This document shows positions 32,345 through 57,651 of a stretch of DNA of 64,000 bases, piece after piece. Source of the DNA: Carcharhinus longimanus (Eukaryota); assembly GCA_030264375.1 (NCBI GenBank), contig JASCQW010000177.1, forward strand, positions 15,347,243 through 15,411,242, written 5' to 3'. The notes below the pieces were generated by a model. That model had not been told where the DNA came from. It searched no databases and saw only the letters and a list, made by a program, of their open reading frames with translations. The first letter of the stretch is position 1; every line of letters starts with the position of its first letter. The translations under genes were made by a program, and so were the position numbers.

Positions 32345-32464
<120 letters not shown>

Positions 32465-36252: not shown

Positions 36253-36264
36253 CCCATAAGGCTC
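36253..36264 (-). CDS. CACNA1A: Candidate 12-nt alternative microexon e24a (G AGC CTT ATG GG = Ser-Leu-Met-Gly) in the domain III S3-S4 loop
   Basis: Minus strand cactgacccttttctcgtctttcttgacttgctggatcag|GAGCCTTATGGG|gtaata: CUGAC branch point, polypyrimidine tract, UGC near the acceptor, phase 2-2; the peptide nearly matches Cav2.2 e24a SFMG. Confidence 0.85.
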
Positions 36265-43574: not shown

Positions 43575-45943
43575 AATAGTGGGAGCCCTGATTGATTCTC
43601 ACCTTTTTTACAATGCCACCTTATTCTTATTTTGGTCTCAAATACATCCCCAATGCTCCATGGGATAAATAAATTCCCAGTTGAGCAATGAAGCACACAA
43701 AACAAGGAGGCTCACTGTTCGATCTGCATCGTTAGCCCATTTAAATAAGAACACAATAGGGCACTAAGTTGGCTCCAATGTTCTTTGGCTAGTAGGAAGG
43801 TGTTGAGAAATCAGAAGGTTACTAAATTCCAACTGCTATCCTTCTGTTGCAAATTGTGCCATCAGGTGTGAACATCAGATTAAAAGAGAATCAGGATCAT
43901 CTGTGATGCACCTACAATTAACACCCATTGTCTGTTCCCACATGGATGGCCACTTAACCTCAATGTTAACAGATGGTTAGTGCCTGAGGAGCCATGTGCC
44001 AGCACAAGTCAGTGCCTTCAGGAAAAAGGAGAAAATTAGTAAGTATAAAATAGATTTTTAAAAAGGAAAATGTGCTTTTCAGAATCCTGTACATGAGAAC
44101 ACATTGTATAAGATAGGCACATGATGGGGAGTGATAGGTATACACTGAAAAGAAAGGGAGGGAAAAATCACTACATACAGGAAGTGAATTCTACTTAGCA
44201 ATTTGAACTTTGTATTAAAACATGCTCTGGAAAGCACTGAGTGTGTTTCTCAAGAGAAACAATCCACAGATATTGTGAGAATATGGATTGAAAAGGTTGT
44301 ACTGAGGTCGGATAGGAGGAAGGGTTGTCTTGAAGGTTGGGCTGGTGGTTGCAATATATCAAAACATCCTTAAGCAAATGAACCAAATGTGACATCAGAA
44401 ACCACGATTGTAACAAAGACTCTCTGATGTCACTTGACAATCTTTTAAGCAATTACTCCACATTGTGCATCCTTCATACAACGCTACACAACAATACAGT
44501 ATATATAGAACTAAATTTAAAACCATGAAATAATCACCCCTGCATAAACAGTACAAAAGTCATGTTTAAATCTCTTAGGAAAAAGAGAGGAGGGTTAGCA
44601 TATCAATTATATTCAACTATTATTAGAATATACTGTTCCAGGAACGAAGAAAATAGTACATTAAAGATAATTGTTTCCACTGTGGTGAACATTACTCCAG
44701 TTTCTTTATCTCTAGATCACGTGAATGACCTTTATATTGACTGCCACTGCTATATTCTGCAGTCAAACACTATTGATATCAGGCCAAATCTTATTTGGCA
44801 CCATACTATTTATATCTCTCAAGCCTCAGTTCTATGCAATCTGGGAAGGGAGTAAAAATGTCATTAGGCAATTCAGTATGTGGATAGCTGAGACCAGGGA
44901 TAAGAGTCAGTCAATAATAGCAAGGAGGAGGATTATGGAGTGTACACATCTGCAACATCCACATTTATATTCATAGATTAACCATGAATAAAGGTAGAAA
45001 AATTAGTTTGATGATGCTTTGTGGACAGAATCTTACTATGTACAGTGCCAGTATTATACAGTGACTGGACAGAGAAGGTTTGGTCTGGTGCTATTTATAT
45101 TCTTGTGCCTCAATTTTCTTTACAACCATCTCTGATGAGATGGTTGTCTCTCTCTAATGAGATGGTTGTCGAGAGAATTGCTGTTTTGGCAGGTTGACAT
45201 TCTGAAGATGCCGGTGACTCTCTGGTACCTCCAAAAAGTGGTCAAGGAATAGCTTTACAGCTGAATCATGTCAATAATAGCAACAAGGAGGATTATGGAG
45301 TGTTGACTTGTGCCATGTCCTCACCCATGGAGTGTCCCTCAGGGGCCATGAGATAGTGAGCAGGACTGGGAGCCTAATCTGACTTTACACTTAGTGAATA
45401 TTAACTCAAAAAACAACCATCATGTACACCTGGGACTTCCTTGATTTGTCTGGTATAGAACCCTACCAATAGGTCAGCATTTATTAATAAACCTGAGAAA
45501 GGCACCCACAGCACATTTGGTACTGGGCTGGAGCACTTACTATACATGGCAGATTAGGGCATAGGCTTTGCAATTTTCTGCTGAGTTCCTGCATTTAGTT
45601 GGGATAACTGGGTGCAGGCACTGGGCAGAAAAAGAAGTTCTTCCACAGGGGGAACAGCACCCTACCATGTTGTCCAAAAGCTCCAGCACTTGCATTATGA
45701 AGTCTGGGGATTGGAGTCAAGGCCTCAATCCACCTCAGTTACGAGGGAATAGGAATAACTGTGCATGAAAACACAAAGAATAGGAGTAAATGAAAAATAT
45801 AAATGTGTGGCGGGGGGGGTGCAATTGTAAAGTTAAAAGACATAAATAAGGTCCTCTGAATATCAGTTAAATACTAATGAACAATCCGGCTCACAATAAA
45901 TGTCTTTAATAAATCCCAGCGCCAGCTGCGTTGGGTGATTTAC

Positions 45944-45991
45944 ATTTCAGAGGACTCCTGATCTGACCCCAACTCCGGCGACGGCGGCTTC
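45944..45991 (-). CDS. CACNA1A: Candidate 48-nt cassette exon in the domain III S3-S4 loop: (T)KPPSPELGSDQESSE(I/M)
   Basis: Minus strand cttttacctttctcaacag|GAAGCCGCCGTCGCCGGAGTTGGGGTCAGATCAGGAGTCCTCTGAAAT|gtaaat: strong acceptor, phase 2-2, no stop, CpG-rich codons in non-repetitive AT-rich intron. Confidence 0.65.
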
Positions 45992-47729
45992 CTGTTGAGA
46001 AAGGTAAAAGCGATTTAAAGAAAAAAAAACATGAGCTATATAACGTCAGCGCCATGCTCACAAATGCAAAGTTGCCACGCTCCGTGCTCTGACCTGGCTG
46101 ACCCCCTCAACATTCCTTCAAAAATTGCTGCACAGGAAAATTAATACTATCACTGTGGTTTGGTGAGTGGGGGTCAAAGCCAGTCACAGCTCCAAACAGA
46201 GACAGAGCTCCTCTGGGAACATCTATACCAAAGGGTCCATACTATGCATACTTCAAATAAATCACTATGAAAACACAAGGCATACTAATACTACTGAACC
46301 CAATCGATAGCCAAAAATTAAGAAACTTCATTGAGCCATCAATGGCACCCAGGTTCAATTCACAATAGTAACCAGGTGTCAGTGATGTATGTCTTCAGCT
46401 TGTAACATGCAGTGCCTACTGGTGCCAGGCAACAAGCTGGTGAGAGCTGGCATGAGCTGCAGATGGACAACATTGGCTATTTCTATATCAGCGTTCACTT
46501 ATTTAGATTTGTCATTTGTCCTTATAATTTTCTGCATTTTTCCTGATGATGTTGACTCATGCTTGGGTACGATTTTATGAATGGTTCTAATTCACCAATA
46601 CTCTGCTCACATGATTATGTGTGGAATTAGACAGTTCACAGGAAGAGTGGGCAGCAGCATGCCTAAACTCAATTCTGTCTGTTCTAGAGCAACTTTAGAA
46701 TGTTCCCTCTCACTAATCCTCCATTAATTTCTATGCAAGTATCATATGGTAATAATACATGGTGGTAATACAATGATGGCATATTGTGTGAAAATAGCAG
46801 AAGCAAGATTTCTTATCATAAGTAACCGTTGGTGAATATGGGTAATTCCTGGTGACTCACAGGTGAAAATTGTAAATCTTGGGGATGACACGGCCACAAA
46901 TTTTAAATACTGTATTCATGGAAAGGATTTTTAAGATAGCAACAAAGGCACCTGAAGAGGCGCAACTCATATTGTACAAATCTTTTAATAACAATACTGA
47001 CGTTAATAAACTAAAATTAGTAAAGTTTGAATGATTAACAATTCATTTTTGTTTATTCTCCTCAATTTCTTCCCTCCTCTCCTACAGATACCAACACTCT
47101 TTGGGTTATGATCTCACAGGCCGCAGGTGTCTTCTACTCCTAGACCAATTTGTGTTTGAACTGAGGCAATGAATGTACCAATGTGTCCTGCTGCCTGTTG
47201 ACCTATAGCATTCAAGCAGCGCTTTTACTCACTAGGTCTCTGATCTGCGAATAGTATAATTGTAAAGAAACACACCCCATATCTATTGTTTACACACGCT
47301 TATAATGGTAAGAGCACCACCCTCTGACAACCAAAAGGTATCCCAATTTTTGCTGTTGCTACTTCACAAGGTCTTATTGCACACTTCCTACCAGCCAGGT
47401 AAATTCAGCTAGTTATATCTTATTAGAGAACAACGGAGACATTCTTCACTTCTGAAAGGATGATGAAGGTCTGATGCCCAGCTAAGTGGAAAGTTACCTA
47501 TAATTACTTGGCTTCTTTGCTGTTTGCTGCCTGCTGAAAAAAATTTGGCTGCATCAAATATTTATGCTTTACCAAGCTTCACCTTCAATAACAGCAATAG
47601 GCAGCTACTTCTGAGTGTTTTATGTGGGGTCAGGAAAGTATTGTTGGGCAGGCAATCACAGTGGTGTGCAAGTCCACATAAATAACATACTGATCAGAAC
47701 AGGCTGAACAGACTAAGACTCTTTTCATA

Positions 47730-57513: not shown

Positions 57514-57651
<138 letters not shown>

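Follow-up and report, generated by a model that had tools for sequence, protein, structure and literature searches.

A 48-nt exon-shaped segment of shark CACNA1A intron 24: more likely a look-alike in a probable regulatory patch than a regularly used exon

The window analysed here, a stretch of 64,000 nucleotides from the shark Carcharhinus longimanus, carries exons 24 and 25 of CACNA1A. The gene is identified by its exon 19, whose best matches are P/Q-type alpha-1A proteins, and a catshark alpha-1A model aligns with it exon by exon, both forms of exon 37 included; the tandem exon 37a/37b pair is present at L013:9480-9385 and 8925-8824 (minus strand). The closest of the models fetched is that of Mustelus asterias, at 96.7-99.0% on three long exons. 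Exon 24 (IIIS2-S3; 57515..57621, minus strand) ends in phase 2, and exon 25 (32351..32447, minus strand) encodes the end of the IIIS3-S4 loop together with IIIS4; shark alpha-1A models map onto both. Between the end of exon 24 at 57515 and the start of exon 25 at 32447 lies intron 24, a phase 2 intron of 25,068 nt.

Within this intron, at 45944..45991 on the minus strand, is a 48-nt segment with the shape of an exon, which may be a cassette exon or a pseudoexon. A T-rich sequence and an AG come directly before it, GTAAAT comes directly after, and it is in phase 2-2. A sequence-only reading had described such a segment within 45900..46070, bounded by AG and GT, preserving the frame and free of stop codons, and all of this was re-derived directly from the sequence; the AG/GT bounds, the length in multiples of three, the correct phase and the absence of a stop expected of a cassette exon are thus all present. 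The 15 whole codons (KPPSPELGSDQESSE) contain no stop, and with the segment included the IIIS3-S4 loop would become 16 residues longer. The encoded peptide has a net charge of -3 and two S-x-E motifs, S-x-E being the Fam20C consensus.

The same intron carries the true counterpart of e24a, a 12-nt microexon encoding SLMG (36253..36264, minus strand), found in RefSeq XP_038640697.1 (P0357 in our set). The loop can be read in 21 of the 22 Cav2.1 models from sharks and rays (13 species, with one name incomplete), and of these 21 just this one catshark model includes the SLMG exon. An ortholog of e24a has 12 nt and four residues; the 48-nt segment is therefore not one, and the SLMG exon is separate from it. 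The SLMG of shark Cav2.1 is nearer to the SFMG of Cav2.2 than to the SSTR of mammalian Cav2.1. A 12-nt exon of the SFMG/SLMG type is known in Cav2.2; none was found in intron 24 of the Cav2.2-like paralog C148 (L025-L027; 18.7 kb, with 145 N). Nothing similar to the 48-nt segment was found in that 18.7-kb intron, nor in the 75 kb upstream of exon 25 of a second paralog, C81, a stretch that does not reach its exon 24. Two teleost Cav2.2 models (P0220 and P0224) have seven extra residues after the e24a tetrapeptide, possibly representing a second cassette in the same loop.

Other optional exons of the gene were also considered. In domain IV, the IVS3-S4 intron contains an e31a-like 6-nt candidate (Thr-Thr; 10189-10184, minus strand) with a poor acceptor score of -1.6, nine YCAY motifs in the 300 nt upstream and three GCAUG downstream. 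A second AG/GT-bounded 6-mer in that intron (Asp-Met; 8565-8560, minus strand), with a good acceptor and a poor donor, is probably a decoy. A 66-nt optional exon of the II-III loop, encoding 22 residues at an e18a-like position, lies at L006:1433-1368 (minus strand) and is included in three of the five catshark isoforms listed. The sequence-only reading had proposed eight voltage-sensor variants, a number that needs three independent exons, all of them real; the SLMG exon is borne out by one of the 21 shark and ray models, and the e31a-like 6-mer and the 48-nt segment each occur in none of the 21.

Splice sites were scored, leaving one out, against 38 donors and 38 acceptors of the same gene (37 of 39 junctions were resolved, two mis-resolved junctions and one U12-type intron were removed, and the sites of exon 24, e24a and exon 25 were added). 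A donor starting GTATCCTT is located at L007:7694 (minus strand), and from its consensus we take it to mark a U12-type intron. The polypyrimidine tract and AG at 45992..46029 (minus strand) score 10.4, more than 30 of the 38 true acceptors, so that the strong acceptor claimed earlier is confirmed. The donor, GTAAAT at 45938..45943 (minus strand), scores 6.6, above 16 of the 38 true donors, and is thus middling by the matrix; its class, however, is atypical for the gene, as it has neither -1G nor +5G and no true donor (0 of 38) lacks both. Decoy donors of like score fall into this class in 41 of 419 cases, and the -1G/+5G rule has weight outside this gene too. The matrix of 38 sites is a rough tool, and a scan for 6-nt exons missed the e31a candidate because of the low score of its acceptor.

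With a summed site score of 16.9, the segment ranks first among the ten in-frame candidates of intron 24, above e24a. Scores of at least 16.9 were also reached by four of the 76 candidates found across 190,407 sense bases, although some of these are possibly real exons, and by seven of 81 in 215,155 antisense bases. As 0.68 decoys of this quality are expected in intron 24, the exon shape alone is not significant. By 4-mer log-odds only one of 123 decoys is as exon-like as the segment, rising to nine of 123 when words containing CpG are excluded, at which point the flanks of the segment look like intron; its 4-mer content lies above 72% of 97 true 48-mers without the CpG words and above 97% with them. 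Bulky residues are as few in only one of the 123 decoy peptides, indicating a polar peptide, but the composition and peptide measures are mutually correlated and were picked after looking. Neural microexons of the SRRM4 type are at most 27 nt long with a UGC just upstream of the acceptor; the segment, at 48 nt, has no TGC within 20 nt of its acceptor, and e24a has one there. YCAY motifs around the segment number five and six per 300 nt against a background of 5.3, GCAUG is likewise at background level, and the 300-nt flanks show no enrichment of UGCAUG or YCAY.

The segment sits inside a single-copy patch that has retained 12 CpGs (45888..46084, no strand assigned), five upstream of it, four inside it (45986, 45983, 45980 and 45977) and three downstream. 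The best 200-nt window contains 11 CpGs against a mean of 1.85, a count reached by 0.11% of 10,068 intronic windows. The sequence-only reading had taken the four internal CpGs as favouring a coding exon. They are all third-position, silent CpGs of NCG codons, which make up four of the seven NCN codons of the segment against 27 of 384 in the true exons of the gene (p ~7e-4), and a further eight CpGs lie within 100 nt on both flanks. Since the CpGs occupy silent positions and the cluster is wider than the segment, they lend no support to coding, and the earlier argument fails. Indeed, because loss of these CpGs would be silent, their retention would point to constraint on the DNA or RNA, or to low germline methylation, rather than to coding. 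The flanks of the segment have five and three CpGs per 100 nt, compared with at most three for 37 flanks of true exons, and windows with at least ten CpGs harbour only one of 30 true short exons. In favour of an exon, the segment lies near the middle of the patch, much as alternative exons lie in the middle of their conserved flanks.

The 215 kb of introns contain six clusters of at least ten CpGs in total. Three of the other five are clear repeats (6, 16 and 18 hits) and two have one or two short hits, whereas the cluster around the segment has no repeat hits at all. For the whole gene, the expected number of decoys that equal the segment in quality and also fall in a CpG cluster is 0.06; this figure, although calculated post hoc, argues that the patch is functional, without saying how.

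Beside the cluster, 100 nt upstream of the segment, is a predicted nuclear-receptor element, a perfect direct repeat with a spacer of three (DR3, of VDR/RXR or PXR type; 46090..46104, minus strand). Read as 46104-46090, it is the only perfect RGGTCA DR3 in 370,058 bases of both strands, in which perfect DR0 to DR5 repeats total five. The patch also contains a third half-site, along with a CRE-like word. At 46043..46057 (minus strand) the motif scan found overlapping words matching the GCATG (Rbfox-like), CTGAC (branch-point-like) and TGACGT (CRE-like) consensus motifs, and this stretch may serve in splicing or in DNA binding. CpG retention in single-copy DNA together with transcription factor motifs, as seen in the patch, is what an enhancer-like element would present, the DR3 and the other motifs having been chosen after looking. 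A scan for bacterial promoters and terminators, irrelevant here, gave no sites.

We hypothesize that the segment is a pseudoexon lying in an intronic element that is probably regulatory, a reading to which we give about even credence. On this hypothesis a VDR/PXR-RXR-type heterodimer would bind the DR3 and a CREB/ATF factor the TGACGT word, and the bound patch may stay unmethylated or under constraint, so that its CpGs and high G+C content would be kept. Such retention would make the 48 nt resemble an exon, the T-run would supply a good acceptor, and the poor match of the donor to U1 would hold inclusion at the level of noise, with the segment skipped in nearly all transcripts. The segment is accordingly more likely to be a look-alike in a probable regulatory patch than a regularly used exon, and its exon status is slightly disfavoured. 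As a pseudoexon it would be an ordinary finding, apart from the candidate intronic regulatory element around it.

The strongest alternative, which we regard as a serious but doubtful one, is that the segment is a real cassette exon restricted to a lineage, which in some neurons would lengthen the extracellular IIIS3-S4 linker by 16 polar residues, or by 20 with SLMG. A longer linker could shift the activation voltage by changing either the local surface charge or the coupling of S3 to S4; the weak donor would be that of a regulated exon, and the flanks, rich in CpG, would represent conserved elements for splicing. The first rank among the ten candidates of the intron, the strong acceptor, the exon-like composition and the polar, loop-like peptide all fit this proposal, and the loop does accept inserts, e24a being present in many of the Cav2.1 and Cav2.2 models fetched and 11 residues being inserted in P0220 and P0224. 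It is opposed by a donor class unseen among the 38 true donors, by the lack of a cluster of neuronal splicing motifs such as that of the e31a candidate, and by the CpGs, which coding leaves unexplained. Moreover, no chondrichthyan model of the 21 includes the segment. The catshark isoforms capture optional exons of 4, 6 and 22 residues, and five isoforms are among the models without the insert. Even so this absence is weak evidence, since SLMG appears in only one of the 21 models and the e31a-like exon in none, and since 11 of the 26 members of the shark cluster fall outside the count, which covers the 15 listed, most species having one model.

Wider comparisons gave the same outcome. The Cav2 loop could be parsed in 368 of 418 other proteins, and nothing like the segment peptide was found in any of the 368. 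Inserts in these loops usually comprise four residues; those of two teleost Cav2.2 models comprise 11, and those of two models that are probably mis-annotated are longer, none resembling this peptide. The segment is also absent among the best 150 of 313 representative matches, which are mostly unspliced genomic fragments and so provide weak evidence. A run search with exon 19 listed 23 runs, none of them recorded as RNA. Contigs from four of 17 runs presumed to be RNA (X1, X2, X3 and X12) gave no match to 45560-46460, a result that speaks neither for nor against the exon, as contigs drop rare variants and may be filtered out, 48 nt may be too short and the stretch contains no positive-control exon. 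A 21-nt metagenome match to the segment (L038) has unrelated flanks and was rejected as chance. In the literature, searched without most subscription journals, no paper on alternative microexon splicing of shark CACNA1A was found; a search on CACNA1A splice variants in cartilaginous fish gave one pharmacology guide, and neither half of the segment peptide occurs among the 15 of 196 matches listed. Mammalian Cav2.1 was said earlier to have no known exon of this kind, which agrees with the 368 loops, with the best 150 of the 313 representatives and with the literature. Of the earlier exon reading itself, the exon-shaped sequence stands, and its use as an exon may or may not be real, none of the annotated isoforms examined carrying it.

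It is conceivable, though unlikely, that exon and enhancer share one patch, the segment being a second cassette exon of the shark Cav2.1 linker, four times the length of e24a and opposite in charge, inside a nuclear-receptor-responsive element. Were the segment real, its combination with SLMG would give linkers longer by 0, 4, 16 or 20 residues.

We consider it improbable that the arrangement is due to chance throughout, a T-run, a GCC-like run and a GT having been aligned by accident in neutral intron. Good decoys are common, two of the other five CpG clusters have nothing beyond one or two short repeat hits, no stable RNA fold is predicted at the segment (z 0.91), and the six weak Rfam matches within 45400-46600 score far under the gathering threshold and do not overlap the segment. 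Against accident stands the coincidence, within 220 nt, of CpG retention in the top 0.1%, in single-copy DNA, with the top splice score and a DR3 that is unique. The weakest proposal is that of an exonised transposable-element remnant, with a polypyrimidine tract derived from its antisense poly(A); the T-run before the acceptor is compatible with it, as are six other genome matches with two mismatches to a 22-mer from the segment against none for the reversed control, an unexplained excess, but in the four of the six examined the similarity stops at the end of the pattern, a second pattern matched only itself, whole-genome DNA searches with the segment region (which skip common words) returned only itself, and in 344 kb of DNA the segment has no non-self match against 112 for a SINE control, so that the further copies expected of such an element are missing, a young or abundant repeat origin is largely refuted, and we hold the proposal to be very improbable.

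Splicing in S3-S4 linkers is already known, and a real exon here would therefore extend a known mechanism rather than open a new one. Among the credible models fetched, it would nevertheless be the largest insert in the voltage-sensor loop of a vertebrate Cav2.1, and it would offer a natural test of the effect of linker length and negative charge on domain III gating at the synapses of cartilaginous fish. The nearest known system is exon e24a of CACNA1A and CACNA1B (SSTR in human Cav2.1, SFMG in rat Cav2.2; PMC11580629), which shares with the segment the intron, the phase and the insertion point where the IIIS3-S4 linker starts, but is 12 nt long; the segment encodes an acidic, proline-rich peptide with no sequence likeness to it and is found in no model fetched. 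SSTR is reported to shift the V50 of human Cav2.1 from -11.8 to -15.4 mV (PMC11580629). Exon 29 of Cav1.1 encodes an extracellular S3-S4 insert of similar size, 19 residues in IVS3-S4, and would be the functional model for the segment if real; it belongs to another gene and to domain IV and has been shown in transcripts and by electrophysiology, and no homology is claimed (PMC4886277; PMC5279877; PMC11580629). Its insert is reported to shift activation by about 30 mV (PMC4886277), and across Cav1 channels V1/2 is reported to correlate with how flexible the linker is (PMC5279877). By analogy, a linker bearing the segment would shift activation if the exon is real.

Under the preferred reading, that of a pseudoexon in a probable regulatory patch, the closest parallel is with deep-intronic pseudoexons, which by the estimate of one study may outnumber real exons tenfold (PMC1935003). 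They resemble the segment in being short, bounded by AG and GT, located in a long intron and without sign of regular inclusion; the segment differs in preserving the frame, in having the top score of its intron and in lying within a CpG patch. The DR3 has its counterpart in the DR3 vitamin D response elements of intronic enhancers, with which it shares two RGGTCA half-sites and a spacer of three, as in the canonical DR3 probe that skate VDR-RXR is reported to bind in vitro (PMC4391915); the present site differs from them in being known from a sequence match found post hoc.
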